NCBI GenBank assembly: GCA_027371545.1
Contig: DAHXMW010000010.1
Coordinates: 2,697-66,696 of the forward strand
Reading direction: 5' to 3'
Source: Candidatus Micrarchaeota archaeon
GTDB taxonomy: Archaea; Micrarchaeota; Micrarchaeia; Micrarchaeales; CABMGC01
Length of the DNA: 64,000 nucleotides
The notes below the pieces were generated by a model that was not told the origin of the DNA, searched no databases, and saw only the letters and a program-made list of their open reading frames with translations. This document shows positions 3,225-63,958 of this stretch, one piece after another. Both the position numbers and the translations under genes were made by a program. Positions within the stretch are counted from its first letter, which is position 1, and each line of letters begins with the position of its first letter.

Positions 3225-3228
3225 GAAT

Positions 3229-4458
3229 ATGGCATGCGAGATAACGGATATTTCTGTGAGGAAGATACTTGATTCTAGATGCGGGTTCACTGTGGAAGTT
3301 CTCGTGACCGGAAAGGATGGTAATAAGGCGCTTACAAGGGTGCCTAACAGCACAAGCACTGGGGAGCACGAGGTATGTGCTTATCCTAAAGACGGCATTG
3401 ATGCTGGAATTGAAAGATTCGGAAGAGTCAAGAGGCGCTTGATTGGTATGGATGCAGAAGATCAGGTAGGCATTGACTCAGCGCTTAAGTCAATAAGCGG
3501 TAAGCGCTTTGAAGAGGTAGGAGGAAATATCGCCACAGGCGTATCGTTATCTTCTGCAAAGCTTGCGGCAAAGTGCAATGGGATGGAACTTTGCGATTAC
3601 GTTAATAGAGTGCTTATGAAGGGCTCAGGAATTAATGAGGGAATTCCAAGACCCATTGGCAACCTTATCGGAGGAGGGGCGCATGCGCATTCCAATATGA
3701 GCATCCAGGAGATATTGGTATCACCGAAGGGCGAGGGCTTCATGGCAAATGCGTATGCTAATGGGCTGGCGCATAAAAAGCTTGGAGAAGAGCTAGGTGG
3801 GCGAGGTAGCGCTTATGGGGTAAATGTTGAAGGCGCATGGAACACAGGTTTGTCAGATATGGAGAATGTCAGGCTGGCGCACTCGATAGCTGATGCAATA
3901 GAAGGAGAACTTGGTGTTGAGGTGGAGCTGGGCATTGATTTTGCAGCCAGTGAGTATTATGAAGGCGGCAGATACCTTTACCCAGGCAAGAAAATAAGCA
4001 AGGAAGAGCAGATAGATTTCGTCAATAAACTTGCGCAGGAGTTCGGGATCAGATATATTGAAGACCCGATGGAGGAGAACGATTTTGAAGGCTTCGCAAA
4101 GATTAATGACGCACTTGGTGAAAGCGCATTGGTGGTAGGAGATGACATATACACAACTGACCAGGAGCGGCTTAGGACAGGAATAAAGAAGCACTCTTCC
4201 AATGCAGTATTGATAAAGGTAAACCAGATAGGAACCCTGAGCGATACAATAGATGTTGTTAGGCTTGCGCATCGGAGCGGAATGAAGACAGTGGTATCGC
4301 ACAGGAGCAGGGACACATATGATTCTTTCATCGCACACCTTGCAGTTGCATTTGGATCGGAATATATAAAATGCGGGATTGTAGGAGGGGAGCGTGTCTC
4401 CAAGCTTAACGAAGTTGCAAGGATAGAAGAGCTAAAGAAGGCGGTTCAATGGAAGTGA
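3229..4458 (+). CDS. eno: Enolase
   Basis: N-terminal ITDISVRKILDSRCGFTVEV, VLIKVNQIGTLSDT and VVSHRSRDT..DSFIAHLAV match enolase signature regions. Glycolytic neighbour of apgM. Confidence 0.9.
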   Translation: MACEITDISVRKILDSRCGFTVEVLVTGKDGNKALTRVPNSTSTGEHEVCAYPKDGIDAGIERFGRVKRRLIGMDAEDQVGIDSALKSISGKRFEEVGGNIATGVSLSSAKLAAKCNGMELCDYVNRVLMKGSGINEGIPRPIGNLIGGGAHAHSNMSIQEILVSPKGEGFMANAYANGLAHKKLGEELGGRGSAYGVNVEGAWNTGLSDMENVRLAHSIADAIEGELGVEVELGIDFAASEYYEGGRYLYPGKKISKEEQIDFVNKLAQEFGIRYIEDPMEENDFEGFAKINDALGESALVVGDDIYTTDQERLRTGIKKHSSNAVLIKVNQIGTLSDTIDVVRLAHRSGMKTVVSHRSRDTYDSFIAHLAVAFGSEYIKCGIVGGERVSKLNEVARIEELKKAVQWK

Positions 4459-6146
4459 TCATAAAATCCTGCGAGGAGGATAAAGGAATCGCTGCTGAAT
4501 CTTTCAGCGAAGAGGAGGAGAGTGAACTCCATCAATTTGCGACAAATTCCGATAGCAACGTATTTGCATGGAAGATAGGGGATCTTCTTACTGCGGAGCA
4601 GGCTGGTGCGCTTCTTTCCAGGTATAGCAGGACATCGCTTACCGGCCGGCGCCTATTTCTAAAGGAGTTCCTCCCCAACAGGGAGAGGGGCAGGGAATTC
4701 TTCGAGTCCTGGTTGGTAGATTATGGCGATGACTCCATACAGGAGATGGCAGGGGGGATACCTGTTTCTTGCGAATTTGTATCCAACCTTGCCGTAAAGG
4801 ATATAGAGGATAGCAGGCTGGCATCGTATATAGAGAAGTCTTCCAGATATGTGCCTTTTGACAAGAGGCTTCCTGGAGGAAGGTATATGTATTACAAAGG
4901 CATGGACATCTCCGAATCGAGGTTTTCCGATAAGTATGAAGACCTGATGGACGGGCTTTTTGATTCATACTCTTCAGGAATGAAAAAAATGATTCCGTAC
5001 ATAGAAGAATCTAATAGGCTTGAGGATCAGGTATTCAGGGTTCAGGATGCAACGCTTCGCATAACCGAGATGGATTCTGCAAAGGAAGAGAGATACGGAA
5101 TTTCTGAGGAAGATCTGAGGCGCGCTTACGATAATGCGGTAAAGGCGAATGCGCTTGACTTCATGAGAGACTATCTGCCAATGGCCACGCTTACGCATGT
5201 TGGAATAAGCGCGAATGCGCGATCCTACGACAACCTGGTAACCAAGATGCTTGCTTCAACGCTTGGCGAGTCAAGATGGATAGGTAAGCGCATATTGTCC
5301 GAGCTTGGAAAGCTCATACCTTCGCTTATGAAAAGGACCGGAGGTGATTATGGCCAGGCAAAGATCAATTTTATAAGGTCTTCTAGGGAAGGTGCAGAGC
5401 ATGCTGCTGCGGAGGCACTCCCCAATGCTGTTTGGAAAGGTGCTGCATCCCTTGTGGACTACACAGGCAAAGGCTTGGATAGGCCGGACGATGCGGCACA
5501 GATTAACCTATGTGCGGCTATAGTGTATCGCTTTTCAGAAGGAATAAATTTTAGGGAAGCTCTGGAATATGCTAAGGCAGCAGGACGGGAGAGGAGGGAT
5601 ATTATAATAGGTGCGTATGTTGGAAAGAGGGAGAATAGGAGGCTAAAGCCTGGGAGGGCCTTTGAGCATGTAGAGTACCTCGCCGAGTTCACAGGCAGAG
5701 TAGGAATTTATAGGGATCTGCAGAGGCACAGGATAGGCACTCAGGAAAGGCAGAGGTTAACTACAAAGATGGGATTTGAGATGCGTCCCCAGTTTGAGGA
5801 AATAGGAATCTCAGACGAGTATAAATCCAAGATGGCTCTTGCGGATGAGCTTTACAGGGAAATGCAGGAAGATATGCCATATCACGCACAGTATGTGGTG
5901 ACTTATGGTTTCCTCGCCAAATGGTATTATCGAATGAATGCCAGGCAGCTCTTCCATTTTGTTGAGCTGAGGACAACTTCAGGAGGGCATCCCGATTACA
6001 GGATGATGGCGCAGCAGCTCTTCAAGGCAGTTGAAGCCGTACATCCTTCAGTAACAAAGCATATGGGATTTGCCAACCTTGAAGACAAGAAGCTTGGAAG
6101 GCTTGATTCGGAGATAAGGATAGCTATCAAGAAACGCCGGAAATAA
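4449..6146 (+). CDS. thyX: ThyX-family (long form) FAD-dependent thymidylate synthase-like protein
   Basis: YRDLQRHRIGTQERQR resembles the ThyX RHR motif. FHFVELRTTSGGHPDYRMMAQQL resembles the C-terminal ThyX helix region. At 565 aa it is about twice the length of a single-domain ThyX. The start overlaps the eno stop by 10 nt, and the gene is convergent with glyA. Confidence 0.55.
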   Translation: MEVIIKSCEEDKGIAAESFSEEEESELHQFATNSDSNVFAWKIGDLLTAEQAGALLSRYSRTSLTGRRLFLKEFLPNRERGREFFESWLVDYGDDSIQEMAGGIPVSCEFVSNLAVKDIEDSRLASYIEKSSRYVPFDKRLPGGRYMYYKGMDISESRFSDKYEDLMDGLFDSYSSGMKKMIPYIEESNRLEDQVFRVQDATLRITEMDSAKEERYGISEEDLRRAYDNAVKANALDFMRDYLPMATLTHVGISANARSYDNLVTKMLASTLGESRWIGKRILSELGKLIPSLMKRTGGDYGQAKINFIRSSREGAEHAAAEALPNAVWKGAASLVDYTGKGLDRPDDAAQINLCAAIVYRFSEGINFREALEYAKAAGRERRDIIIGAYVGKRENRRLKPGRAFEHVEYLAEFTGRVGIYRDLQRHRIGTQERQRLTTKMGFEMRPQFEEIGISDEYKSKMALADELYREMQEDMPYHAQYVVTYGFLAKWYYRMNARQLFHFVELRTTSGGHPDYRMMAQQLFKAVEAVHPSVTKHMGFANLEDKKLGRLDSEIRIAIKKRRK

Positions 6147-7537: not shown

Positions 7538-8044
7538 ATGAAGAAACAGGTCCCCGAAGTAAGACTCAGGCGGGCGACTATTGCCGATATAGGTAAGCTT
7601 ACAGCGATGGCCAGAAAGATGCTTGACTACCATATAGCACTTTCTTCGGGGGACAGCACAATAATGGCATATCTAAAGCCAGACAGGGATTTTGATAGGA
7701 TATGGAAAGGTTGGGTAGGAAAGTGGATAAGATCGGCTAACGGGATGGTGATAATCGCAGAATCACGTGGCAAGCCAATAGGCTACGCCATGGGTTACAT
7801 AAAGAAGAATACGCCGATTTACAGCCTGAAGGAGCTAGGGTACATAGGCGATTTGTACGTTGAGAAAAATTTCAGGAGATCTGGTGTTGGAACGATGATG
7901 AAGGATTTCATGCTCGACTGGTTCAGGAAGCGCAAGATGAGATATGTTTCCATAGCAGTCCACGAGTCTAATTCCTCTGCGCATAAGGCTTATGCCTCAT
8001 GGGGATTTTCGGATTACTACAGGGAGATGAGGCAGAAGTTATAG
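7538..8044 (+). CDS. GNAT family N-acetyltransferase
   Basis: 168 aa. LYVEKNFRRSGVGTMMKDFM is the acetyl-CoA-binding R-x-x-G-x-G motif. The size is typical of a GNAT. Confidence 0.7.
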   Translation: MKKQVPEVRLRRATIADIGKLTAMARKMLDYHIALSSGDSTIMAYLKPDRDFDRIWKGWVGKWIRSANGMVIIAESRGKPIGYAMGYIKKNTPIYSLKELGYIGDLYVEKNFRRSGVGTMMKDFMLDWFRKRKMRYVSIAVHESNSSAHKAYASWGFSDYYREMRQKL

Positions 8045-26889: not shown

Positions 26890-27702
26890 ATGGATAGGAA
26901 AAGGACAATTTACATAGGCTTAGCGATTATAGTGGTTCTCGCAATTGCCTTAATAGCATCTTCATCGCTTGGAAGCGGAAACGGAGCGGCGCTTGCTGCA
27001 TATGACAACGTCAGGGTAAGTAGTGCGGTAATTAGCAATCTGAGCAGCGTTCCCAACTCTGTAAGCAATGCCGTGGGCATAAACGAGGTCAGCGATCTTC
27101 CCACAATAATAAAGAAGGGAAGCATGCTTACGGACAATGGCAAACCCGAGGTGCTTTTCATAGGCGCAGAATACTGCCCATTCTGCGCTGCGGAGAGATG
27201 GGGAATGGTGATAGCGCTGATGAGATTCGGCACATTCTCCAATCTCCATTACATGACATCAAGTCCCTCTGACGTGTTTCAAAACACGCCTACGTTCACC
27301 TTCTACAATTCTACGTATACAAGCAATTACATAACCTTCGTGCCTGTAGAGATAGAGAAGAATAAGCTTGTCAATGGTACTTATCCTACGTTGCAGACAC
27401 CGAACCAAAGCGAGAATCAGATATTTTCCACTTATAATCCATCGGGGAGCATACCTTTCATAGATTTTGCAAATAGGAGCGTGCAGATAGGTTCAAACTA
27501 CCAGCCGCCTGACGTTCTTGATGGCTACAACTGGACCCAGATATCGCATGATACCCATAATAGCTCAACTGTTCAGGCAGAGGAGGTGGTAGGCACTGCA
27601 AACCTGATTACCGCACAGATATGCGCAGTTACAAATAACACGCCGCAGAATGTCTGCAGCCAGGGTTATGTGGTCTCCGCGGAGAAGCAGCTTGGGATAT
27701 AA
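26890..27702 (+). CDS. DUF929-like membrane-anchored CxxC (thioredoxin-like) protein
   Basis: N-terminal [20 protein letters not shown] single CxxC sits in [25 protein letters not shown]. Several N-x-S/T sequons. The stop overlaps the VKOR start (TAATG). Confidence 0.6.
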
Positions 27703-44607: not shown

Positions 44608-44716
44608 GGCTTTTAGTCCGCATGCTTTTTTGGTGGCATGTTAGTTCATACGATCCCTGATAGATGCACCTTTATTTGCGCTGTGTGATTAGGAAAGCTT
44701 AAATTATTATTCGCGG

Positions 44717-44740
44717 ATATACGCATATATACGCATATAC
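44717..44740. repeat. Perfect tandem 10-mer ATATACGCAT x2.4
   Basis: ATATACGCAT ATATACGCAT ATAC, 35 nt upstream of the PIG-L deacetylase ATG (44775). TATA-like content. Confidence 0.8.
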
Positions 44741-44774
44741 TTGTTTTGGTAATGGCACTTTTAGGTGATTATTC

Positions 44775-45461
44775 ATGAAGGTACTTGGCGTTGCTGCGCA
44801 TCCTGACGATTTGGATTTTGGCGCTGCGGGAACTTTTGCAAAATGGTCTAAGGAAGGGGCTAGTTGCTACTACCTTATCTGCACGAACGGATGCAAGGGC
44901 TCTGACGATCCGAAGATGACAGAAAAGAAACTGATAAAGATAAGGCGCAGGGAGCAGATTGAAGCTGGCAGGGTGCTTGGGCTTAAGGGAGTATACTTCC
45001 TTAACCATAATGATACGCAACTTGTAGCCGATCTGAAGCTCAAGAAGGAGATAGTGCGAATGATAAGGAGGATAAAGCCTGATGTGGTAGTAACCATGGA
45101 TCCTACATTTGTCTATTCTAAGAGAGGCTTTGTCAACCATACGGATCATAGGGCTGCCGGGCAAGCAACTATAGATGCAGTATATCCTCTTGCAAGGGAC
45201 AGGCTCACCTTTAAGGAGCTTGAGAAGGAAGGCCTGAAGCCGCATACTGTAAAGACCCTTTATCTTACAAATTTCGAGAACAGGAACGAGATCGTTGACA
45301 TAAGCGATACAATAGACCTTAAGGTAGCCGCGTTGAAGTGCCATAGAAGCCAGATATCAGCCGAGAGCGTTTCCAGGATAAAGGAGATGGCAAAAATGGC
45401 AGGGAAAGATAAAGGATACAAATATGCAGAGGGATTTGTCAGGCTTGACCTCCCAGGATGA
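44775..45461 (+). CDS. PIG-L/LmbE-family N-acetylglucosaminyl deacetylase
   Basis: KVLGVAAHPDDLDFGAAGTFAKW (AHPDD motif), LICTNG and NHTDHRAAG (HxDH). Confidence 0.8.
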   Translation: MKVLGVAAHPDDLDFGAAGTFAKWSKEGASCYYLICTNGCKGSDDPKMTEKKLIKIRRREQIEAGRVLGLKGVYFLNHNDTQLVADLKLKKEIVRMIRRIKPDVVVTMDPTFVYSKRGFVNHTDHRAAGQATIDAVYPLARDRLTFKELEKEGLKPHTVKTLYLTNFENRNEIVDISDTIDLKVAALKCHRSQISAESVSRIKEMAKMAGKDKGYKYAEGFVRLDLPG

Positions 45462-46636
45462 CTCTGATGGTTTTCTCGCTCTTTAATTCGCGTGGGAGGA
45501 AGATTGAAAGATTCTACCCAATTTCCAGAGGTGCAGGCGGGATAAAGATATACGTATGCGGAGTCACCCCATATGACACTACTCACCTTGGGCACGCATT
45601 CACATACGTCTCATTTGACGTGCTTATACGCTATTTGAGGTTTCTTGGCTTCAATGTAAACTATACGCAGAATGTTACTGACATAGACGATGATATACTA
45701 AGGAAAAGCAGGGAGAATGGTGTAGGATGGAAGAGCCTGGGCAGCTTTTGGACAAAAAGGTACCTTAATGATATGAAGGCCCTAAATGTAGGGAAGCCTA
45801 CGCACTATGTCAAGGCTACCGAATCCATTCCTGAGATAATAGGGATGGTTTCGAAGCTTGTAAAAAAGAAGGTTGCCTACGAAAGGGAAGGAAATGTCTA
45901 CTTCGATGTGGCTTCCTTCGATGGGTACGGATCTCTCTCTGGATTTAACGAAGGGCAGATGAAGCTTCTCCTAAAGGAACGCGGCGGAGACCCTGATGAC
46001 AGCCGCAAGAAAGGCCCACTTGATTTCCTTTTGTGGCAAGGATCTAAAAAAGGAGAACCTTATTGGAAGTCGCCATGGGGTAATGGCAGGCCAGGATGGC
46101 ATATAGAATGTTCTGCTATGATACACGAGTACCTTGGGGAGCAGATAGACATACACGGAGGCGGAAGAGACCTCATATTCCCTCACCATGAGAGCGAGAT
46201 TGCGCAGTCAGAGAGCTTCACCGGCAAGAGTCCTTTCTCCAATTACTTCATGCATACTGCAATGGTAATGTACATGGGAGAGAAGATGGCAAAATCCCTT
46301 GGCAATCTTGTCCTTGTTTCGGATCTGCTTAAGAAAGGCCATACGCCAAACGCAATAAGATGGCTTCTGTTGTCGCATCATTATAGGAAGATATGGGAAT
46401 ACGAAGAAGGCGAACTTGAGGAAGCTGAATTTTATTCCGGCCTCATAGGCAAGCTCGGGAAGAGAAGCGCCTCGCCTCACGGAGGTGCTTTGGAAGCTTT
46501 CACCGATGCGATGGATAACGACCTAGATACTATTACGGTGCTCAAAATCCTAAGTGAACTCCTCGACTCCGAAGGAAGGAGCGAGGCTGCCGATTTGGTG
46601 AAAATTGTAGACACCCTTGGCTTCCTGAGGGCCTAG
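45458..46636 (+). CDS. Class I cysteine ligase, CysRS-like but C-terminally short (MshC-like architecture)
   Basis: [16 protein letters not shown] (HIGH), [61 protein letters not shown] (KMSKS) and DAMDNDLDT. The protein ends about 40 aa after DNDLDT, at 392 aa, so there is no room for a full CysRS anticodon-binding domain. The ATG overlaps the deacetylase TGA (ATGA). Confidence 0.75.
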
Positions 46637-46655: not shown

Positions 46656-47885
46656 ATGAAAAATGACAAGGGATTCTCTTATCTAGTCTACTCGCGCATT
46701 TTCAGGAGCGTCGCGTTGATATTTATGACCCTCGGGTCTCCACTCTACCTTGCGCTCCTTAACTTAAGCATAACCGAGATAGGCCTCGTGTATGTTGGGG
46801 TGATGGCTTTTACGGCCCTCCTTTCCGTAGGACTTGGGATGCTTGGGGACAGATTCGGGTACAAAAAATCGCTCATACTGGGTGAGATACCGCCAATGGC
46901 AGGCGCAGTAGTTCTCGCATTGTCGCAGAACATATGGCTTGTTGGTTTAGGTGTTACCGTAGCGGGCATCAGTGGTGTTGCAGGAGGCATGCGCGGAGCC
47001 TTTTCGCCAGGCATGACAGCTTTTACGGCGAGCACCTATCCAAACCATGAGGAGAGAGTAAAGAAGCTTGGTACCCTTGTCGTCGCCGCTTCTGTATCAA
47101 GCGTCTTTGGGGCTATGCTTCTACTTAGCCAGTCTTACATAATACCGGTTTTCGGCGCGGCAGGTGCGTTCAGGGCTCTGTTTGGAGTTGCCGCGTTGAT
47201 GCTCTTCGCGTCATTTTTATGCCTCTTCCTTCTGGAAGAGAATCCAAGACCTGTAAAATCCACCAGGATGATGAAGCCTGAAAGCATGAGGTATATGGTA
47301 AGGATATCTGCACTTAGCATACTCAACGGCTTTGGGATGGGGTTGTCGCTTCCTCTTCTTCCGCTTATGTTTGCAATAGCCTTCAAGCTTCCTGCAGATA
47401 CTACTGCGCTGTATATAGGCATTATATACATACCATCGTATATAGCTACAGCAATAGGTTCGGATATTTCCAAGAAGCTATCTAGGAAGCTGGACGTTAT
47501 GCAGGTTGCTTCTGTAGCAAGGATGGCAAACGGCCTTCTCCTTGGGCTCCTTGGCGTGATATTCTTCATGCAGTATTATGGATTTCTGGTTTATCTTCCG
47601 CTTCTTGCCGCAGCTGCTTTTGTATATTCCTGCAGGTCGCTTGCGGCCGGATTCGGATCTGCGTCGATAAGCGCAGTAAGCGTGAAGGGAATACACGGCG
47701 AGGATTATGGAACCGCTACAAGCATACAGGGTCTTGCGGGAAATATTTCACAGGCAAGCAGCGGAATAAGTGGTTATTTGGCAGAGATATCGCTTCCGGC
47801 GCCGCTCTTTGCTGGTGCAATTCTCCAGACACTGAGCGGTTATTTGTATCCCAAGCTGCTTGCCGAAAAGAAGAATAAGAATTAA
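46656..47885 (+). CDS. MFS transporter
   Basis: About 12 TM segments. GMLGDRFGYKKS is the loop 2-3 motif. Confidence 0.75.
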   Translation: MKNDKGFSYLVYSRIFRSVALIFMTLGSPLYLALLNLSITEIGLVYVGVMAFTALLSVGLGMLGDRFGYKKSLILGEIPPMAGAVVLALSQNIWLVGLGVTVAGISGVAGGMRGAFSPGMTAFTASTYPNHEERVKKLGTLVVAASVSSVFGAMLLLSQSYIIPVFGAAGAFRALFGVAALMLFASFLCLFLLEENPRPVKSTRMMKPESMRYMVRISALSILNGFGMGLSLPLLPLMFAIAFKLPADTTALYIGIIYIPSYIATAIGSDISKKLSRKLDVMQVASVARMANGLLLGLLGVIFFMQYYGFLVYLPLLAAAAFVYSCRSLAAGFGSASISAVSVKGIHGEDYGTATSIQGLAGNISQASSGISGYLAEISLPAPLFAGAILQTLSGYLYPKLLAEKKNKN

Positions 47886-48658
47886 AGCCGGAGCGCAGAT
47901 GCGGCATTGGTGTCGATAAGGATCGTTGCGTCTCCATGCATTCTCAGTGCCGAGGCAGGCACCTCGGTGGACAGATCCTCACGGATTGATCTCATTATGG
48001 CAATCGCTTTAGATTCACCGGTAGCAATAAGCACTATTCTCTCTGCGGAGAGTATTGTGCCAATTCCCATGGTTATCGCGGCAGAAGGCATTTTTGCTCC
48101 TTTGAAGTATATTGAATTTGAATTTATTGTAGATGGGCTAAGGCTTACGACATGAGTCTTCGAGTCTATTGCGGTGCCTGGTTCGTTGAATCCTATGTGT
48201 CCGTTCGTGCCTATACCCAGGTACTGGAGCCCTATCCCGCCATTTGATACTATTAGATTTTCGTAGGATGACGCCTCTGCCTCTGGGTCAGCTGCATTTG
48301 AATTAGGTATGAATGATCTTTCTACGGCTATTTTCGAGAACATGTGCCTTTGCATGTAAGTCGAATATGTATTAGGATCGTCTGTCGCAAGGCCTATGTA
48401 CTCATCTAGGTTAAATGTGTTTATATCAAGTTTATTTTTGCCAAGCGCCTTGCATTGAGAGACTAGTTCCGCGTAGAAAGGCTCGAATGTGGCGCCTGTC
48501 GCAAGGCCTATGTTCCTGTTTTTTGATGTGGAGAGATAATTGAACAGAATCTTTACTGCGTCGCTATATAAGTCTTGCTGGCTCGCGTATATCCTGAGGC
48601 GCAGCCCGTTCGTTTCCTTTTCGGTATAAGCTCTTTTTGTGTACAGCATTTCACGCAA
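47882..48658 (-). CDS. nagB: Glucosamine-6-phosphate deaminase
   Basis: IGLATGATFEPFY, TFNLDEYIGL and LGIGTNGHIGFNEPG match NagB core motifs. Confidence 0.8.
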   Translation of the reverse strand: MREMLYTKRAYTEKETNGLRLRIYASQQDLYSDAVKILFNYLSTSKNRNIGLATGATFEPFYAELVSQCKALGKNKLDINTFNLDEYIGLATDDPNTYSTYMQRHMFSKIAVERSFIPNSNAADPEAEASSYENLIVSNGGIGLQYLGIGTNGHIGFNEPGTAIDSKTHVVSLSPSTINSNSIYFKGAKMPSAAITMGIGTILSAERIVLIATGESKAIAIMRSIREDLSTEVPASALRMHGDATILIDTNAASALRL

Positions 48659-48732: not shown

Positions 48733-50082
48733 ATGGCTAGCGCGTTTGCTGTTGTCAAGAACATGGATAGCGTGCCTTCCTTTAAGAGCAGTGTGGCCGT
48801 AGAGAATGTATTCTTCAAGCTTGCAGAGCATATCAACAAAGATGGCTACATCAAGGCCTCGCTTACATATCCACATTATTATGCATGCTGGTTCAGGGAT
48901 GCTTCCATGACAAGCATCTCTATGGCAAACCTCGCCGCGGAGCTTAGCACAGAAAGGCGCGGATCTTCTGATGCTCCGCTTCTTGGTATAGACAGGGATA
49001 TGCCGCGAGAATTGTCTGCGAGGATACTCAGATTCCTTTGGGGCTCTGTAGCCGAAAATTCATGGAGAATTGGGGGGGCTGTAGATGGAGAAGACTATGC
49101 AAGTACTGAAGAGAGCAGGCATATACCAGCCAGGGTTGGCGAGGATGGAAAGATTTTTCACATGGAGATTGACGGAAAGGTGTTTACAGATAGGAAAGGG
49201 TACGATGTCTGGGATGGATACAATGTCCTTATAAGGCAGCATGACAGCATACCGTTATTGTTGCTTGCCACGGAGAATTATATAGGCAGATTTGGAAGGG
49301 ATGGTGTTGAAGGGGTTGTGGCGTGGCTGAAGGAGAATGCTAAGGTGGTAGCCAATTATGTCGAATCTACACTCTATACTCCATGCGCTAACGCATGGGA
49401 ACTTGATGACAATTCCTTCCATTCATACGACATCGCTGCGATACAGAGAGGCCTTAAAAGCCTTGCAGAACTTGATAGCATGCTTGGGCTTGGGGTAAAT
49501 AGGGATAAGCTCTCAGATGCGCAGCATACGGCAGGGCGGATGCTTCTTGAGCATTTCGTCAGGGATGGGATTCTCTTCAAGGCAACCGAATGTACAGATG
49601 GAAAGTTTAAGGAAGATCCCATAATGGAAGTCGATGCGTCTGCGATACTGGTATTCAATTATTTCAAGCCTCCTGAGCTAGGCAAGGATATTGAGATAAA
49701 TACAATGGCAAGGATAGAATCCGATCTCTTTGGTGGCAATATGCTGCCGCTGAGATATAAGCACGATGACTATTTCTATGGTGGGAGATGGCTGCTCCTT
49801 GGGCTTGAAGCTGCAGTCTGGTACACCAATAATGGTAACCGTGAAAAGGCAGCTTCCATTATTGAATATGTAAATGCGAAGTATCTGGCAACTGGTTCGG
49901 GTATGCTTCCGGAACAGGAGCTCGTAAACCCTGAATCTCCCGGGAAGGATCCATACGAATTCTTCGTCAGGAACGGAAGCAGCATGGTAACTGATCTTGC
50001 GTGGTCTGAAGCTGCGTACATAAACGCGTTTATTGCGATGACTTCGCGCAAGCCGGAGATAGAGATACTCGTCAGGAGATAG
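48733..50082 (+). CDS. Glycoside hydrolase family 15 (glucoamylase-like catalytic domain)
   Basis: YYACWFRDASMTSI, NAWELDDNSFHSYDIAAIQRGL, LPEQE and GGRWLLLGLEAAVWY are typical of an (alpha/alpha)6 GH15 domain. Confidence 0.72.
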   Translation: MASAFAVVKNMDSVPSFKSSVAVENVFFKLAEHINKDGYIKASLTYPHYYACWFRDASMTSISMANLAAELSTERRGSSDAPLLGIDRDMPRELSARILRFLWGSVAENSWRIGGAVDGEDYASTEESRHIPARVGEDGKIFHMEIDGKVFTDRKGYDVWDGYNVLIRQHDSIPLLLLATENYIGRFGRDGVEGVVAWLKENAKVVANYVESTLYTPCANAWELDDNSFHSYDIAAIQRGLKSLAELDSMLGLGVNRDKLSDAQHTAGRMLLEHFVRDGILFKATECTDGKFKEDPIMEVDASAILVFNYFKPPELGKDIEINTMARIESDLFGGNMLPLRYKHDDYFYGGRWLLLGLEAAVWYTNNGNREKAASIIEYVNAKYLATGSGMLPEQELVNPESPGKDPYEFFVRNGSSMVTDLAWSEAAYINAFIAMTSRKPEIEILVRR

Positions 50083-50092
50083 TGGGGCATCT

Positions 50093-50776
50093 ATGCTTGG
50101 GCATGGTGAAGAGAGCTCCGATGTGCCTCTTGTTTCGGCATCTATATTATCAGCAGATTTCGGCGCTTTACGCGAAGAAGCAGTAAGATTAGCACAAGCA
50201 GGAGCAGATAGCATACACGTAGATGTGATGGATGGGCATTTCGTGCCTAACCTGGCTTTTGGTCCGGATATTGTGCGTGCGCTGCATGCGCATCCAGGTA
50301 TACCGCTTCAAGTGCACCTGATGTTAGAGAGACCCAGGTCTTTCATACCCAGCTTCGCAGAATGCGGAGCGGATATGCTTATATTCCATTACGAGTGTGA
50401 TGATGATATTAAGCAACTTGCCAAATCCGCAGAAGATGCAGGGTGCAGTGCAGGACTTGCCATAAACCCTGAGACAGGATTCGAATCAATCAGGAATATC
50501 GTTGGATCTTTCGACTTGCTTCAGATAATGGGAGTTCATCCCGGCCTTAGCGGACAGGCCTTCATTCCGGATACTTTGAAAAAGATAGGAGATGCGCGTG
50601 CATATATGGATATGGAGCACCTTGGAACAGTGGTTGCAGTAGATGGCGGTGTGAAATTGGAAAATTCGCAGATGATACTTAATGCTGGCGCTGACCAGCT
50701 TGTAGTTGGAAGCTATCTCTCATCGGCTGAAGATGTAAAGGCTGCCATAGACAGGCTTAAAGGGATTATAGGCTGA
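50093..50776 (+). CDS. rpe: Ribulose-phosphate 3-epimerase
   Basis: SASILSADFGALREEAVRLAQAGADSIHVDVMDGHFVPNLAFG, VHLM, GVHPGLSGQAFIP and AVDGGV. Confidence 0.9.
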   Translation: MLGHGEESSDVPLVSASILSADFGALREEAVRLAQAGADSIHVDVMDGHFVPNLAFGPDIVRALHAHPGIPLQVHLMLERPRSFIPSFAECGADMLIFHYECDDDIKQLAKSAEDAGCSAGLAINPETGFESIRNIVGSFDLLQIMGVHPGLSGQAFIPDTLKKIGDARAYMDMEHLGTVVAVDGGVKLENSQMILNAGADQLVVGSYLSSAEDVKAAIDRLKGIIG

Positions 50777-50802: not shown

Positions 50803-52008
50803 TTGGATAGGAGAAGGACAGCTCTGACTTTTACCTCTTTGGGGCATTTCTCAAATGATTTCTCAAGCCTTCTGTTTCCTGTGCTTATAACGTATTTCCT
50901 TACCATACCTGGCATAAGCATCCTCTTCCTTGGTGTTATGGCCTTCATGTACAATATACTTTCCGGGCTTCTTGGTGTTCCGGTGAGTAGGATAGCGGAC
51001 AGGAGCGAGGCTGAAGGAAAACTTATGGCTATTGGCATATTGATAATAGGAGCGAGTGCAGTGTTTTTTGCATCTGCATTTTTTTACCAGCATCTTGCCT
51101 ATTTGCTAATCTTTGCGGGCACTATTGTTTTTGGTCTTGGAAGGGCTTTTTACCACCCTATAGGAGCATCTATATTGCAGAGGGAATACGGACCGGAAAA
51201 ATCCCCGGAGGTGATGGGAGTTAATGGTTCATTTGGAAGCATAGGAAGGGCAATAATGCCTACGGTGCTGATAGCAGCAGTAGGGTTTGCAGGACTGTTT
51301 AATGGGATGCTGCTTGTTGCTTATTTTTACTTTGCGTGTGGTATAATTATATTCTTGGGCCTTAGGCACATGCGCAGTGTGGCAAGGAACGCAGCTAAAC
51401 GCAAAGAAGGCAAGCGCATGGCAAGCAAGAAAACGGATTTCCGCAGGTATTATGCATTCCTTGCCGCATTTGTCGGGATAGTATTCGTGAGATCCATGTT
51501 CATAGAGGGCGTGATGACCTTTACGCCTGAATACGTAATCGGGTTGTTTGGCTCAGAGGTATTGATGGGTGTCCTTCTTACCGTAGGATTCTTTGCTGCC
51601 ATATTCGGGCAGATCTTCTTCGGAGTTGTCACTTCTAGGAAAGGAGGGCTCTTTGGATTCTCTGCCTCTGCTGTGCTTGCCCTCGTCGCATTTGTTCTTT
51701 TCATGCTCTCTGGAAAGTTGTTTATAATGGATGTAATTTCATATGCGATTTTCGTATTTGGCGCATTCAACGGGTTTCCTGTGCTCCTTGGATATGTAGG
51801 GCAGGTAATCCCTGCAGAGTACTCGACTAGGGCAAACTCGCTTGTATGGAATATAGGAAATACCATAGGAGGATCTGCGGGAATAGGCGTTTTTACAGTC
51901 CTACTTTACTATGTTAGCATAGGCACAGGCATGTGGGTTATGGTTGCGTTGGCATTTATCTCGGCATTGATGCTTCCGCTTCTTGCCTGGGCGGCAAATG
52001 ATGTCTGA
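50803..52008 (+). CDS. MFS transporter
   Basis: About 12 TM segments and an MFS-like loop (VSRIADRSEAEGK). TTG start. Confidence 0.7.
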   Translation: MDRRRTALTFTSLGHFSNDFSSLLFPVLITYFLTIPGISILFLGVMAFMYNILSGLLGVPVSRIADRSEAEGKLMAIGILIIGASAVFFASAFFYQHLAYLLIFAGTIVFGLGRAFYHPIGASILQREYGPEKSPEVMGVNGSFGSIGRAIMPTVLIAAVGFAGLFNGMLLVAYFYFACGIIIFLGLRHMRSVARNAAKRKEGKRMASKKTDFRRYYAFLAAFVGIVFVRSMFIEGVMTFTPEYVIGLFGSEVLMGVLLTVGFFAAIFGQIFFGVVTSRKGGLFGFSASAVLALVAFVLFMLSGKLFIMDVISYAIFVFGAFNGFPVLLGYVGQVIPAEYSTRANSLVWNIGNTIGGSAGIGVFTVLLYYVSIGTGMWVMVALAFISALMLPLLAWAANDV

Positions 52009-52698: not shown

Positions 52699-53739
52699 AT
52701 GGCAGTTTCTGCACAAAAACAAACTGTTAGAGACAATACTCTAGAAAGATACAAGAAGACTTTGGCGAGGTTCAAGTTGATAAGCACAGTTTCCCTGATA
52801 ATAAGCATTGTGGCGATACTCTTCTCCGTGGCAATTATTATTTTCCATCTTGGCGGGTCTAACGTAGTCTCTTATGTAAATGTGACTCAAAACTCTACTG
52901 GAACGAGCAGCAACAGCTTCGGGAGCAGGCTCACCAACATAGATGAGCCCCTAAACGCGACAGCGCTCTCCGTAATAAATAATGCGCCGACCAGCTATTT
53001 TGAGATTGCAGGGCAGAAGCTTCTCAATGGAACATTGACAGATCCAATAATACCGCAGATACCTAATTCGTCTGATACTTTTAACGAGATAGTGGTAAAT
53101 GGGAAGCCGACTGTTATTTATATAGGGGCTATTTCCTGCGTATACTGCGGAGAGAACAGGTGGGCAATGGCATTGGCACTCTCAAGGTTCGGAAACTTCA
53201 GCGAATTGTATAAGGGCTATAGCAGTTTTGGTGATCACAACCTTCCTACCTTGTACTGGATTCCTGACAACTACACCACGCAGGCGGGCGTTGGATACGG
53301 GAATTACTATTCTAGCAATTATCTCAATTTTGTATCTGCGGATTATGAATCTCCGATAGTGCAGGGATTCCAGGTGCAGCCTCTCTCGTATTTCATACAG
53401 AACGCACCGAATGAGACGTACAAGAATGCCATGAGCTTCATGAACAGCACCGGGCTTTTCCAGGGAACGCCATTCACCTTCTGGGGGAGATATGCTATAG
53501 ATGGAGCTGACGGAATTGTCTTTGGAAATTCTACCCCTACTTCTCAGACTCTCCCGCTTACGTATATGACACATGCGCAGGTTCTGCAGCAGCTTAGCAA
53601 TTTTAACGATCAGTTTGCATGGGGCGAGTATGCCGCAGCTGACGTGTACGTGGCTTATACTTGCGCGTCAATAAACAATACGGCAAGCATCTGCAGCCTC
53701 CCTGCAATAACAGGCATAGAGGCGAGGATGAAGATATGA
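52699..53739 (+). CDS. DUF929-like membrane-anchored CxxC protein (paralog of 26890..27702)
   Basis: N-terminal TM LISTVSLIISIVAILFSVAIIIF. YIGAISCVYCGENRWAMALALSRFGNF is collinear with [27 protein letters not shown] in the paralog. Many N-x-S/T sequons. Confidence 0.6.
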   Translation: MAVSAQKQTVRDNTLERYKKTLARFKLISTVSLIISIVAILFSVAIIIFHLGGSNVVSYVNVTQNSTGTSSNSFGSRLTNIDEPLNATALSVINNAPTSYFEIAGQKLLNGTLTDPIIPQIPNSSDTFNEIVVNGKPTVIYIGAISCVYCGENRWAMALALSRFGNFSELYKGYSSFGDHNLPTLYWIPDNYTTQAGVGYGNYYSSNYLNFVSADYESPIVQGFQVQPLSYFIQNAPNETYKNAMSFMNSTGLFQGTPFTFWGRYAIDGADGIVFGNSTPTSQTLPLTYMTHAQVLQQLSNFNDQFAWGEYAAADVYVAYTCASINNTASICSLPAITGIEARMKI

Positions 53740-60843: not shown

Positions 60844-62868
60844 TTGCAGCTGGACTTTGTTCCTATGGTGGGTGCAAATATGGAAGATAGATATAGGAAG
60901 GCCTTGGAGGAATTCGGGGTTCTTACTTATCTGTCGCGCACTTCCTCTGGTCCGGAGGGCATCTCCATGGAGGACATAATGAAGAGCATTTTCTACTCTG
61001 CCCCAGGTATAGATTATCACAGGAGGAGCATAAAGAGCATGGTCGTTGATGGAGAGATAGCCGCAAAGGAGGGGAGGCTGCAGGATTATACCCAGATGAT
61101 AAATGTACGTGACATACTTGATGTTGCGAGGAGGCTTGTGGCTAAAGAGATTAATAAGCACGACATAGCATACCTTCGGAGTACGCTTCTTGAAGGAGTC
61201 CTTGGAATAGACGGTTCTGGGTTCAGGAGGTTCAGAAACCGATCGGGCCATTACATAACCGCTCCTACAGATGAGGTAAGCGGAGGGATGGATGCATTAG
61301 TAGAGCTTCTGAATAAGCCTTCGAAGAACGGCATAGACGCTTTTTCCAATGCCGTGGATTTCTTCCTTGGCTTCGTAAAGCTGCATCCTTTTGATGAGTG
61401 CGTTGGGAGGACGGACAGGATAGTCACGAACAGCTATCTGATAGCCCATGGAATAAACCCCATATTCCTCAACAACAATGGAAGCAGCCACTCTTACGCT
61501 TCTGCTCTTGATATATCGTATTTCTCCGGATATTATGGGGCCTTTATAGCGATAGCCCTTATTTCTGCAATGGACAACAAGAACAAGGAGGCATTTATAT
61601 CGAAGATAAAATCAGAGAGCTATACGGATCCTACAATGATAGAGCTCAAGAATCTTGTGCTTTCCGTAACGAAAGAGTTGGGAGGTGAAGAGCTGGTTAG
61701 AGTGCTGGGCCTGTCTGAAAATCTGTACTGCAAGGACTCTGCACCACTGCTCCTTTCCGGGCTTTTTGCGCTGAAGACTTACGGAATGGATAGCGAGATT
61801 ATAGAGATGGCCCTGCGGCATAAGGACAGTGGCATAAGGGCAGTAGGGTTTTATACTGCAGAGGCTGTCAATTTTGCAAAATACAAGAACGCATTTATTG
61901 ATGCTGCAATACACGATCCCAGCGTAGATGTCAGAATGGTTGCAGTGGGCATACTTGGAACCAGGAAGGAGCTTGATGGGAAAACAGCATTGAGGATACT
62001 TGCGTCTTCCACTGAAGAGACAGTTTTGATATCGCTTGGATCTGCTATGAGGTTTGCTGCAGGAGGAGATGTTGAATGCATGGATGTAATAAATGCAATT
62101 TGCGCGTCAAGGTCGAAAGATGTCAGGTTCAGGGGCTTCCAGGCGATGATGGTACATGGGGATAATGGTGCTGTGGCTAATACGATAGCTTTACTTAAAG
62201 ATGAGCCGCTTGAGATGTTCAGGGCTGCAGTAACAGAGCTGAAAAGGGTTGGAAGGATAAATGATTACGATATAGCAAAGAGCCTGGCAGACGTAGTATC
62301 TGGTGATGTGCAAAAACGCAAGATGCTTTTGGGCCAGCTGGCCATGGATGGAAGAGTATCTGATGCATATCAGGGTATGCTTAATGATGTGTTAACTTCT
62401 GACAATTCGGGTGCGGTGGAGAAGATCTACGCCGCATATCTTTTTGGTACCAAATACGGCTACGCACAGACCGTTTCAATGTATCCGGATGCAGAAAGCC
62501 TGAAGGACCATATGCTATTTGGAATAGTGAAGACAATACTTATGGTTGATGAGGCAAATGGCGGTGCTGATAAGTTAAAGCAGCGCATACCAGAACTTGT
62601 CTCAAATAGTGCCTTGCAGAACTTCGTACTTGCTTCTGAACTTGGAAGCCTTATGAAAAAAGGAGGGCTTGATGGAGAGTTGGTGAAGAAAGTTGCAGAG
62701 GCTATCGAAGCAGCAGAGCCTGTAATCAGGAACTCAGACAGATTCTACAACCTCACAGCTCAGTTGAAGAGAAAGGCAGCAATGATGAACGATCTCATTG
62801 AAGCTGGCAGGACTGGCGTGGCAGCGACAAATAGCACAGGGCTGAAGAATGCAAGAATAAAACGCTGA
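60844..62868 (+). CDS. Fic-domain protein with a degenerate active-site motif, fused to C-terminal HEAT-like repeats
   Basis: HPFDECVGRTDR (61384..61419) compared with the canonical HxFx(D/E)GNGRxxR. N-terminal STLLEG (61180..61197) fits the (S/T)xxxE(G/N) inhibitory-helix motif. The C-terminal half has repeated HKDSGIRAVGFY / HDPSVDVRMVAVGILG-type HEAT units. TTG start; the real start may be an internal ATG (MVGANMEDRY). Confidence 0.6.
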   Translation: MQLDFVPMVGANMEDRYRKALEEFGVLTYLSRTSSGPEGISMEDIMKSIFYSAPGIDYHRRSIKSMVVDGEIAAKEGRLQDYTQMINVRDILDVARRLVAKEINKHDIAYLRSTLLEGVLGIDGSGFRRFRNRSGHYITAPTDEVSGGMDALVELLNKPSKNGIDAFSNAVDFFLGFVKLHPFDECVGRTDRIVTNSYLIAHGINPIFLNNNGSSHSYASALDISYFSGYYGAFIAIALISAMDNKNKEAFISKIKSESYTDPTMIELKNLVLSVTKELGGEELVRVLGLSENLYCKDSAPLLLSGLFALKTYGMDSEIIEMALRHKDSGIRAVGFYTAEAVNFAKYKNAFIDAAIHDPSVDVRMVAVGILGTRKELDGKTALRILASSTEETVLISLGSAMRFAAGGDVECMDVINAICASRSKDVRFRGFQAMMVHGDNGAVANTIALLKDEPLEMFRAAVTELKRVGRINDYDIAKSLADVVSGDVQKRKMLLGQLAMDGRVSDAYQGMLNDVLTSDNSGAVEKIYAAYLFGTKYGYAQTVSMYPDAESLKDHMLFGIVKTILMVDEANGGADKLKQRIPELVSNSALQNFVLASELGSLMKKGGLDGELVKKVAEAIEAAEPVIRNSDRFYNLTAQLKRKAAMMNDLIEAGRTGVAATNSTGLKNARIKR

Positions 62869-62892: not shown

Positions 62893-63297
62893 TTATTTGC
62901 CTTTTGACACGCTCCTGAATCCTATCCATATCCCATTTGGATCCTTTACAAAGCCCATGGCTATGTGCTTACCTTCTGATTCCCACTCGCGCAGCTTCAT
63001 GGCTACAGGTGCGCCTGCCTTAATCATTTTATCGTATGCTTTCTTCGCGTCATCGACTTCGAACATAAGATGGTCGAGTTCCACGCCATCCTCCTTCCAC
63101 GGGGTATAAATCGCGCATGTTTTTGAGTACCACATGAGATTTATCCGCTGCTTTGTAGCCTTGTCCTCCAGGCTGACGACTTCTTCTCCCTGTATTGGGC
63201 TTCTTCTCCCGATTATCCTTAGTCCAAGGCGCTTAGTATAGAATTCGGTTGACTTCTTTATGTCCTTGACCCTTATGCTCGTATAAGACAAACCCAT
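62893..63297 (-). CDS. VOC-family (glyoxalase I-like) protein
   Basis: From ATG 63297 it reads MGLSYTSIRVKDIKKSTEFYTKRLGL...LDHLMFEVDD...FVKDPNGIWIGF, the paired beta-alpha-beta-beta-beta modules of glyoxalase/bleomycin-resistance proteins. Confidence 0.7.
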   Translation of the reverse strand: MGLSYTSIRVKDIKKSTEFYTKRLGLRIIGRRSPIQGEEVVSLEDKATKQRINLMWYSKTCAIYTPWKEDGVELDHLMFEVDDAKKAYDKMIKAGAPVAMKLREWESEGKHIAMGFVKDPNGIWIGFRSVSKGK

Positions 63298-63383
63298 TGA
63301 ATCACATCGTATTACTATGTAGTATACGGAGGTATAATAACCAGATGGCAATGCGCTGAATCTTTTTGGTGACAGCCATGCCG

Positions 63384-63848
63384 CTATTCGTAGAGTGCCT
63401 TGTTTATCATCATGTCATCGAAGTCACAGTTTAGCCATGACTTGTCAATAATAGCGCCACGTTTTGAGTAGAACTTTATCGCATCCTTGTTCCAGTCAAG
63501 AACCTGCCATCTTACTCTCTTGCAACCTTCTTTGGCAGCAACCTCAAAGACTTTTTTAAGTAGGGCTGTTCCCACCTTCCTTCCCCTGTAGCGCGGCTTC
63601 ACGTATATATCGTCCAGGTAGAGGCTTTTCCCAACCCAGGTATAGTAGGCGAAGAAGAATACGGCGTAGCCTATCGGCCTGCCGTTTTCAGATGCAATAA
63701 GGGCCCTGAAGAGGTGCTTTTCTTTTTTCATTCTTGATACTGAATTTTTTACTTTGTCCACCGCTCTTTCGAAGCGCGCTAGCTCCTTTACCATGCCCAT
63801 GATGGGCTTGTAGTCTGCCTCCGATGCCTCCCTTATCTCAATTCCCAT
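63384..63848 (-). CDS. GNAT-family (diamine/spermidine-type) N-acetyltransferase
   Basis: From ATG 63848 it reads MGIEIREASEADYKPI..., then LYLDDIYVKPRYRGRKVGTALLKKV (acetyl-CoA motif) and AIKFYSKRGA. The longer track ORF would run into tRNA-Arg. Confidence 0.75.
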   Translation of the reverse strand: MGIEIREASEADYKPIMGMVKELARFERAVDKVKNSVSRMKKEKHLFRALIASENGRPIGYAVFFFAYYTWVGKSLYLDDIYVKPRYRGRKVGTALLKKVFEVAAKEGCKRVRWQVLDWNKDAIKFYSKRGAIIDKSWLNCDFDDMMINKALYE

Positions 63849-63883
63849 AACAGATGGCCTCTTATTGCTATGCATCGTATATA

Positions 63884-63958
63884 CGGGCATGACGGGATTT
63901 GAACCCGCAACCAACGGCTCCGCAAGCCGACGTGCTATCCAAGTTACACCACATGCCC
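63884..63958 (-). tRNA. tRNA-Arg (GCG)
   Basis: Reverse complement reads GGGCATG-TG-GTGT-AACTTGGAT-AGCAC-G-TCGGC-TTGCGGA-GCCGT-TGGTT-GCGGG-TTCAAAT-CCCGT-CATGCCC-G. Confidence 0.8.

Follow-up and report, generated by a model that had tools for sequence, protein, structure and literature searches.

Mycothiol and bacillithiol are built around a common core, in which cysteine is joined to glucosamine (Cys-GlcN). In the bacillithiol pathway (BshA/BshB/BshC), a deacetylase of the LmbE family acts first and cysteine is then placed on the resulting GlcN-X; BshC is unrelated to cysteinyl-tRNA synthetase (CysRS). The MshC ligase of actinobacterial mycothiol synthesis (TIGR03447; PDB 3C8Z, 8HFM-8HFO) is CysRS-derived, with a class I core of about 400 residues that keeps the HIGH and KMSKS motifs and is without an anticodon-binding domain. 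Here we describe a gene pair in a 64-kb stretch of DNA from a Candidatus Micrarchaeota archaeon (contig DAHXMW010000010.1; the whole stretch is referred to below as the window), in which a gene for a deacetylase of the PIG-L/LmbE family overlaps a gene for a short, CysRS-like ligase. The pair probably encodes a deacetylase and an ATP-dependent cysteine:aminosugar amide ligase that would together make a compound of the type Cys-GlcN-X, a reading to which we give a probability of about 0.6. The route would be related to those of mycothiol and bacillithiol, without being mycothiol synthesis proper.

Two further systems invite comparison. Dac, the diacetylchitobiose deacetylase of Thermococcales (PDB 3WL4, 3WE7, 8BGN), works in chitin catabolism alongside GlmA and GlmD and is not known to have a cysteine ligase as its partner. 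In Desulfobacterales, a CysRS paralog that lacks the anticodon-binding domain, CysRS*, coexists with a normal CysRS and charges SelC* (Mukai et al. 2017, as far as this work is summarised in PMC9437257). CysRS* is coupled to selC*/selB*, whereas the partner of the window ligase is a PIG-L gene, and the ligase has no tRNA gene for several kb around it, either in the window or at 11 related loci.

The overlapping gene pair

The two open reading frames (ORFs) encode proteins of 228 and 392 residues and lie exactly where the original prediction had placed them (Table 1). The TGA stop codon of the deacetylase gene sits inside an ATGA that contains the start codon of the ligase gene, an overlap which, on a direct reading of the sequence, is expected to couple the translation of the two. 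In other Micrarchaeota species, the gene coordinates place the deacetylase and ligase genes only about 4 nt apart. The identical ligase sequence is present on 19 public contigs, including NCBI assembly GCA_021835105.1, and its nearest species-level relatives (57-87% identity) all come from metagenome-assembled genomes (MAGs) of Candidatus Micrarchaeota. The genes around the pair are archaeal and include those for Rpb7, Spt4 and the archaeal prolyl- and phenylalanyl-tRNA synthetases (ProRS and PheRS).

Domain content and conserved residues of the ligase

The ligase matches tRNA-synt_1e (PF01406) with 373 bits, in agreement with its original family assignment. On the cysS model TIGR00435 it scores 407.6 bits, above the trusted cutoff of 340, over profile positions 2-375 of 466 only. 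On the MshC model TIGR03447 it scores 385.8 bits and falls short of the cutoff of 485.1, whereas true MshC controls reach 535.5 and 631 bits. When the cysS score is subtracted from the MshC score, canonical CysRSs come to -275 and -251, true MshCs to +274 and +315, and the window ligase to -22, with other short relatives ranging from -45 to +93. By this calibrated difference, the ligase is a true intermediate and belongs to neither the cysS nor the MshC equivalog.

As had been predicted, the protein is too short for a full anticodon-binding domain. No match to DALR_2 (PF09190) or CysS_C (PF23493) is found in its 392 residues with Pfam, and it ends some 30 residues past the DAMDNDLDT motif, so that about 90 C-terminal residues of CysRS, comprising most of DALR_2 and all of CysS_C, are missing. 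The strongest identity elements of tRNACys are the anticodon GCA and U73 (PMC9976931). Loss of the anticodon-binding domain, taken with the presence of a full-length paralog (see below), argues against a role in translation.

What is retained is the catalytic core, which is 40-45% identical to the catalytic domain of canonical CysRS (TIGR00435; PDB 1LI5, 1U0B, 8QHP). HIGH is present as HLGH and KMSKS as KMAKS, alongside GWHIECSAM and the LDFLLW, GNLVLVS and DAMDNDLDT motifs quoted in the original prediction, which had also recognized that the catalytic and zinc-site residues of CysRS are kept; all four CysRS-type zinc ligands (C34, C218, H243 and E247) are in place. Four residues of E. coli CysRS (R42, K73, K185 and N237) are, in contrast, lost. 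They are conserved in 91-100% of 106 full-length CysRSs, K185 in all of them, and are replaced in the short family by F48, D79, Q194 and S246, which are themselves 94-100% conserved there. The same four residues are also replaced in MshC. In addition, P38, G176 (in the ERGG motif) and L284 (in GNL) are common to the whole clade of short proteins and rare in canonical CysRS, and the TPYD.THLGHA, (E/Q)RGG(D/N) and GNLV motifs are found in both the window ligase and MshC. The two differ in that the window ligase keeps the HHESE of CysRS, including Glu as the fourth zinc ligand, where MshC has HHE(Y/M)S/C, and in M221, H233 and I248, which are as in CysRS.

An AlphaFold (AF2) model of the ligase (pLDDT 83) has MshC as its top Foldseek match (8hfn/3c8z; TMq 0.88, TMt 0.86, with the whole of MshC covered), and tRNA-bound CysRS 1u0b, of which only part is covered, gives TMq 0.86 and TMt 0.74; the comparison of folds separates MshC from CysRS only marginally.

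These properties could also be those of a genuine tRNA-charging CysRS, be it a housekeeping enzyme pared down for a reduced genome or an additional CysRS dedicated to a special tRNA, whose PIG-L neighbourhood would be unrelated to its chemistry. Such an enzyme would be expected to pass the cysS cutoff and to keep HIGH, KMSKS and the four zinc ligands, as the ligase does; the protein is named cysteine--tRNA ligase by PGAP, is CysRS-like at seven of the ten columns that discriminate MshC from CysRS, and has in CysRS* a precedent for charging without an anticodon-binding domain (PMC9437257). The four near-invariant residues that it has lost, among them the fully conserved K185, do not fit this explanation, nor does the absence of an adjacent partner tRNA gene in the 12 loci.

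Relationship to MshC

The family of the window ligase is very large. Its proteins have about 385 residues, are 55-66% identical to the window ligase and are found in Micrarchaeota, in MAGs labelled 'Marsarchaeota' and in Patescibacteria such as Levybacteria. Members are annotated as cysteine--tRNA ligase by NCBI (PGAP) and as MshC by IMG. In an exhaustive search of representatives at 50% identity, the next-nearest relatives were again short proteins, of 375-435 residues, which came ahead of full-length CysRS.

Phylogenetic placement was assessed in two neighbour-joining analyses that used different alignments and distance corrections and held 7 and 12 true MshC sequences, respectively. The core family was recovered with bootstrap values of 98.5% and 99%. 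Together with every true MshC it forms a clade of short forms (about 375-435 residues), supported at 67.5% and 60%, from which E. coli CysRS and the long CysRSs of Micrarchaeota are excluded. The 12 MshC sequences form a subclade of their own (99.5%), and the window family lies outside it. Profile scoring and phylogeny, which had been proposed as a means of deciding between MshC and CysRS, thus gave an intermediate score and a position beside MshC, within the short-form clade but outside the MshC subclade.

The original view of the ligase as MshC-like therefore stands in part: in architecture and lineage it is closer to MshC than to a reduced housekeeping CysRS, but its score on the MshC model, its place in the tree and its CysRS-like columns set it apart from MshC proper. 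The pair is best filed as MshC-like and not as containing a minimal CysRS, that is, as a variant on the theme of a CysRS-derived ligase with an LmbE deacetylase that extends across DPANN archaea and bacteria of the candidate phyla radiation (CPR).

A separate full-length CysRS

If the short ligase does not serve translation, Cys codons would have to be translated by way of another, full-length CysRS. In one Micrarchaeaceae MAG (locus L013), a single 12-kb contig carries both LmbE and short ligase genes (2424-4467) and, 6 kb from the pair, a long CysRS gene (10847-12087). The latter encodes at least 413 residues before it runs off the end of the contig, and its product is 44% identical to CysRSs of Nanoarchaeia and Woesearchaeota. 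The accessions of the short and long proteins (MEM3839261 and MEM3839269) are eight numbers apart. Accession proximity confirmed only this pair; all other short and long pairs are more than 17,000 accession numbers apart, and so come from different genomes. Homologues of the long gene encode proteins of 480-486 residues with both DALR_2 and CysS_C and occur throughout Micrarchaeota, which contribute more than 100 clusters of CysRSs of this size.

These data suggest that Micrarchaeota generally encode a separate full-length CysRS and that the window organism probably carries the short ligase in addition to a normal one. The earlier suggestion that the ligase might be the only CysRS of its organism is thus not borne out at the level of the phylum, and a tRNA-charging role for the short protein is correspondingly harder to sustain. 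The second cysS that had been looked to as a test was found on the same contig in L013 and across the phylum; within the 64-kb window there is no long CysRS gene.

A second CysRS in Patescibacteria is not demonstrated, which counts in favour of tRNA charging. The query used was P0353, a CysRS of 486 residues on a 6.8-kb contig labelled 'Candidatus Saccharimonadales bacterium'. Its close relatives (50-73% identity) are all from Micrarchaeota, so the label is likely a binning error; the contig is probably mis-binned and would carry no information on the CysRS of CPR bacteria.

Linkage of the ligase to PIG-L genes

In nine of ten Micrarchaeota species representatives, a PIG-L gene lies directly upstream of the ligase gene, either overlapping it or about 4 nt away, while the wider neighbourhood is otherwise not conserved. 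Orthologs of the window deacetylase (72-76% identity) occupy this position in loci L005-L013. Of six Patescibacteria-type loci, three (L085, L172 and L174) have a PIG-L gene next to the ligase gene in divergent orientation. Among 70 canonical cysS loci (1.12 Mb in total), by contrast, none has a PIG-L gene within 10 kb. Set against this figure, the frequency in Micrarchaeota shows that the pairing is far beyond chance, and it supports the earlier proposal that ligase and LmbE deacetylase are functionally tied. A metagenome scan with the family alignment and the patterns GRPGWHIE and PHHESEIA returned mainly distant relatives (40-54% identity) and entered the analysis of PIG-L adjacency solely as a negative control.

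The PIG-L proteins of Patescibacteria are only 29-32% identical to those of the archaea and score best on the BshB2 and MshB models, whereas the ligases of the two groups are 58% identical. It appears from this difference that one ligase family is partnered with non-orthologous deacetylases, and that the partnership either arose or was kept with them. A metagenomic protein of 634 residues (P0129) carries a PIG-L domain in frame behind a ligase domain, and each of the two shares 48% identity with its window counterpart.

A tRNA-charging function for the short ligase would leave unexplained its linkage to PIG-L in two domains of life, with non-orthologous partners and in one fusion. It would be more at home in Levybacteria-type loci, where the ligase gene stands among housekeeping genes with no PIG-L gene nearby. 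On balance, we consider this explanation unlikely.

Several further features of these loci may be recorded. Genes related to oxidative stress lie near the short ligase in Patescibacteria-type loci (L085, 13097-13594; L172, 7890-8295; L173, 6167-6715), encoding a Ni-superoxide dismutase in L085 and L172 and, directly downstream of the ligase, a methionine sulfoxide reductase in L173. PfkB sugar kinase genes are also found near Patescibacteria-type ligases, and a NAGPA-family gene in L173. In Levybacteria-type genomes, a conserved protein of 386-389 residues with no Pfam match is encoded directly behind the ligase (L086, 9188-10357; L087, 9285-10451; L174, 6251-7411). Separately, a protein of 609 residues (P0203) joins a CysRS-type catalytic domain (14-314) to the N-terminal domain of glycoside hydrolase family 3 (365-603). 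It has no DALR or anticodon domain and gives a second case in which a sugar-active enzyme is combined with a CysRS core, although an artefact of assembly could be responsible.

The deacetylase and its likely acceptor

The deacetylase scores 101.3 bits on PF02585, well above the cutoff of 28.2, as expected from its original family assignment, and carries the metal motifs AHPDD (residues 8-12) and HTDH (residues 122-125, within NHTDH) that had been noted. It reaches none of the cutoffs of the relevant NCBIfam models: BshB1 (94.2 against 182.5), BshB2 (77.2 against 195.3), MshB (43.2 against 224.4) and Mca (55.8 against 277.2). The nearest solved structures are the diacetylchitobiose deacetylases of Thermococcales (8bgn and 3wl4), to which it is 37% identical over its full length at 131 bits; MshB structures give 25 bits. 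The deacetylase had been likened to MshB, a comparison that has to be given up in favour of Dac. The likeness to the bacillithiol pathway lies in the use of an LmbE-family deacetylase (with BshB-like scores of 94-122 bits) and, if the prediction is right, in the subsequent transfer of cysteine to GlcN-X. The differences are that the cysteine-adding enzyme is here derived from CysRS, that the deacetylases score under the BshB cutoffs, and that there is no BshA equivalog in the window ORFs scanned.

The search for partner genes covered 55 window ORFs, leaving out about 14 mostly short ones at 24.8-35 kb, and found no equivalog of MshA, BshA, MshD or Ino1. The MshA- and MshD-like genes that would have accompanied a mycothiol pathway are therefore wanting among these ORFs. 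The only glycosyltransferase of family GT4 in the window (17262..18425) is 27 kb from the pair. It was considered as an MshA or BshA and rejected as non-specific: its best match is a monoglucosyl-diacylglycerol synthase (152 bits), and it scores 112.7 on BshA (cutoff 273.7) and 110.7 on MshA (cutoff 462.5). Because no dedicated glycosyltransferase is found nearby and the deacetylase is Dac-like, salvage of imported N-acetylglucosamine (GlcNAc) or chitobiose-type compounds seems plausible from these comparisons. The most economical guess is that the acceptor is a GlcN-type amine derived from an imported GlcNAc compound.

Acquisition by the archaeon of a bona fide mycothiol pathway, with MshB and MshC, would account for the IMG annotation of family members as MshC and for the TPYD.THLGHA, ERGGDPD and GNLVLVS motifs that the ligase has in common with M. 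smegmatis MshC. It is hardly to be reconciled with a ligase that does not reach the MshC cutoff and lies outside the well-supported MshC subclade, with a deacetylase so distant from MshB by profile and by structure, or with the lack of MshA and MshD equivalogs in the window ORFs scanned. A 2020 survey of archaeal thiols by InterPro families likewise contains no MshC matches in archaea (PMC7278568), a negative that fits with the short family scoring below the MshC cutoff. We regard mycothiol synthesis proper as extremely improbable.

The likeness to Dac raises another explanation, put forward in the original prediction as an alternative: that the deacetylase is part of a local amino-sugar catabolic island and the adjacency of the ligase incidental. 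The pair is indeed flanked in the window by genes for a BadF/NagK-like kinase and a NagB-like glucosamine-6-phosphate deaminase (219.9 bits, just below the cutoff of 236.9), accompanied by an MFS transporter. Outside the window lineage, however, these NagB and kinase genes stand next to the pair in L005 alone. The LmbE-ligase pair itself is kept in another seven species whose neighbourhoods otherwise differ, and recurs in Patescibacteria and as a fusion. An incidental association of this kind is very unlikely.

It is also conceivable that the pair acts on a glycolipid or glycan, with a GlcNAc-lipid or a glycan of the surface as the substrate of PIG-L (compare the deacetylation of GlcNAc-phosphatidylinositol or archaetidylinositol) and the ligase cysteinylating the bared amine. 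PIG-L is the family of the GlcNAc-phosphatidylinositol de-N-acetylase, some archaea contain glucosaminyl archaetidylinositol, and the hosts of DPANN and CPR organisms supply them with lipids; moreover, no glycosyltransferase for a soluble acceptor is linked to the pair. Pfam detects no membrane-associated domain in either protein, however, and the nearest characterised relatives (Dac, BshB and MshC) act on soluble substrates, to which the MFS genes adjacent in several loci are also the better fit. A lipid or surface acceptor is accordingly held to be rather improbable.

A proposed route to Cys-GlcN-X

In the route that we favour, deacetylation followed by cysteinylation of an aminosugar, the zinc-dependent LmbE/PIG-L deacetylase would first take the N-acetyl group off GlcNAc-X, baring the 2-amino group. 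The ligase would then use ATP to convert L-cysteine into Cys-AMP on its CysRS/MshC-type catalytic core, in which the zinc site, kept along with HIGH and KMSKS, would select for the thiol. Finally, the cysteinyl group would be passed to the amine of the sugar, and not to tRNA, to give an amide-linked Cys-GlcN-X. Since mycothiol and bacillithiol share Cys-GlcN as their core, the product is by analogy most likely a low-molecular-weight thiol or the precursor of one, and may serve as a thiol buffer.

A number of points weigh against this route. The ligase exceeds the trusted cutoff of cysS and not that of MshC, and most of the discriminating columns, together with the glutamate zinc ligand, are those of CysRS. 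The short-form clade has no more than moderate support, and this comes from distance trees, not from maximum likelihood. The evidence for a long CysRS is drawn from L013 and from the phylum, the gene not having been located in the window's own MAG; were Patescibacteria carriers to have no other CysRS, the short family would have to charge tRNA. An adjacent PIG-L gene is missing at three of the six Patescibacteria-type loci and at Micrarchaeota locus L014, and the window ORFs scanned include neither an MshD nor a glycosyltransferase of the MshA/BshA type linked to the pair. The fusion P0129 rests on a single 2.4-kb contig and could be a read-through artefact, but even as an artefact it shows the two genes to be adjacent, in reverse order, in a third lineage.

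A wider proposal can be put forward only tentatively, and we hold it to be somewhat less probable than not. Micrarchaeota (DPANN) and many Patescibacteria (CPR) may make an undescribed low-molecular-weight thiol of the cysteinyl-glucosamine type by a minimal salvage route with two enzymes, in which a GlcNAc-type compound is imported, deacetylated by PIG-L and cysteinylated by the CysRS-derived ligase; the lineage of the ligase would be a deep sister, or a precursor, of actinobacterial MshC. The module would have been overlooked because one annotation pipeline labels its ligase genes cysS and another mshC. In addition, family-based surveys cannot see a family whose scores pass the cysS cutoff but do not reach that of MshC. 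No description of the module came up in literature searches that combined mycothiol or MshC with Micrarchaeota, DPANN, Patescibacteria or CPR.

In the pair there is a hint of a small thiol, not described so far, in ultra-small archaea and bacteria. Should the module turn out to make a Cys-aminosugar, it would stand next to mycothiol and bacillithiol as a third biosynthetic solution, would show how amide ligases of the MshC type emerged from CysRS, and would provide a testable handle on the thiol metabolism of symbionts that can now be co-cultured. As members annotated by NCBI in both groups bear the name cysteine--tRNA ligase, inferences on the completeness of the aminoacyl-tRNA synthetase set that rely on this name may be unsafe for genomes that carry the family.

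Other features of the window

Table 1. Positions in the window of the gene pair and of the other features discussed.
Feature	Position	Strand	Basis or comment
PIG-L/LmbE-family zinc deacetylase, predicted	44775..45461	+	PF02585, AHPDD and NHTDH metal motifs
Short class I cysteine-activating ligase, predicted	45458..46636	+	CysRS/MshC catalytic core, without anticodon-binding domain
ATGA stop/start overlap of deacetylase and ligase	45458..45461	+	direct sequence reading
MFS transporter	46656..47885	+	PF07690; start 19 nt past ligase stop
Divergent intergenic region upstream of pair	44424..44774	.	sequence read
HAD phosphatase	43812..44423	-	overlaps 5' end of ProRS gene, co-directional
GNATs	7538..8044 and 63384..63914
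VOC	62893..63351
Lineage-specific sugar island around pair	41461..42381, 47882..48658, 48733..50082, 50093..50776, 50803..52008		BadF/NagK-like kinase, NagB-like glucosamine-6-phosphate deaminase, 449-aa protein without family match, ribulose-phosphate 3-epimerase, second MFS transporter

The neighbours cited in support of the original prediction (HAD, MFS, GNAT and VOC genes) all exist, but only the MFS (major facilitator superfamily) transporter gene behind the ligase is a possible third gene of the unit, being the sole one of them that is plausibly co-transcribed. Orthologs of this transporter gene follow the ligase only in the closest relatives, L005 and L006; unrelated MFS genes adjoin the ligase in the Patescibacteria-type loci L085 and L173. 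The HAD gene, which runs on the opposite strand, overlaps the ProRS gene co-directionally, and so belongs with ProRS and not with the pair. The GNAT and VOC genes are 16-37 kb away. HAD and MFS were considered as conserved members of the module and rejected, on account of the ProRS overlap and because the HAD and MFS genes of Patescibacteria are not orthologous to those of the window.

In the intergenic region upstream of the pair, GGTGAT is found about 11 nt before the ATG of the deacetylase gene. An exact tandem repeat of 10 bp (tacgcatata, two copies at 44720-44739, with partial flanking copies extending over 44716..44741) lies 35-55 nt upstream of the same ATG and could be a promoter or operator element, judging from its position.

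The 5' part of the ProRS gene (43459..43852, minus strand) is unusual. The protein aligns over all 494 residues, with 89.7% identity, to its L005 ortholog, and the window frame contains three TAG stops at codons 6, 8 and 10. Past these, the frame offers neither ATG nor GTG nor TTG over about 131 codons, until the ATG at 43459 is reached. The conserved N-terminal part of ProRS falls in this start-less stretch, and the same gene call of 363 residues is made in four independent assemblies. Translation might possibly start at an ATA after GGTGA, or at an out-of-frame ATG followed by a -1 slip on a run of seven A (gcAAAAAAAc).

Elsewhere in the window, a protein of 565 residues (4449..6146) has two matches to the ThyX (Thy1) domain and is about twice the usual length of ThyX; duplication or fusion of a flavin-dependent thymidylate synthase may lie behind this. 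Two DUF929 paralogs are encoded at 26890..27702 and 52699..53739, and a Fic-domain protein of 674 residues at 60844..62868.

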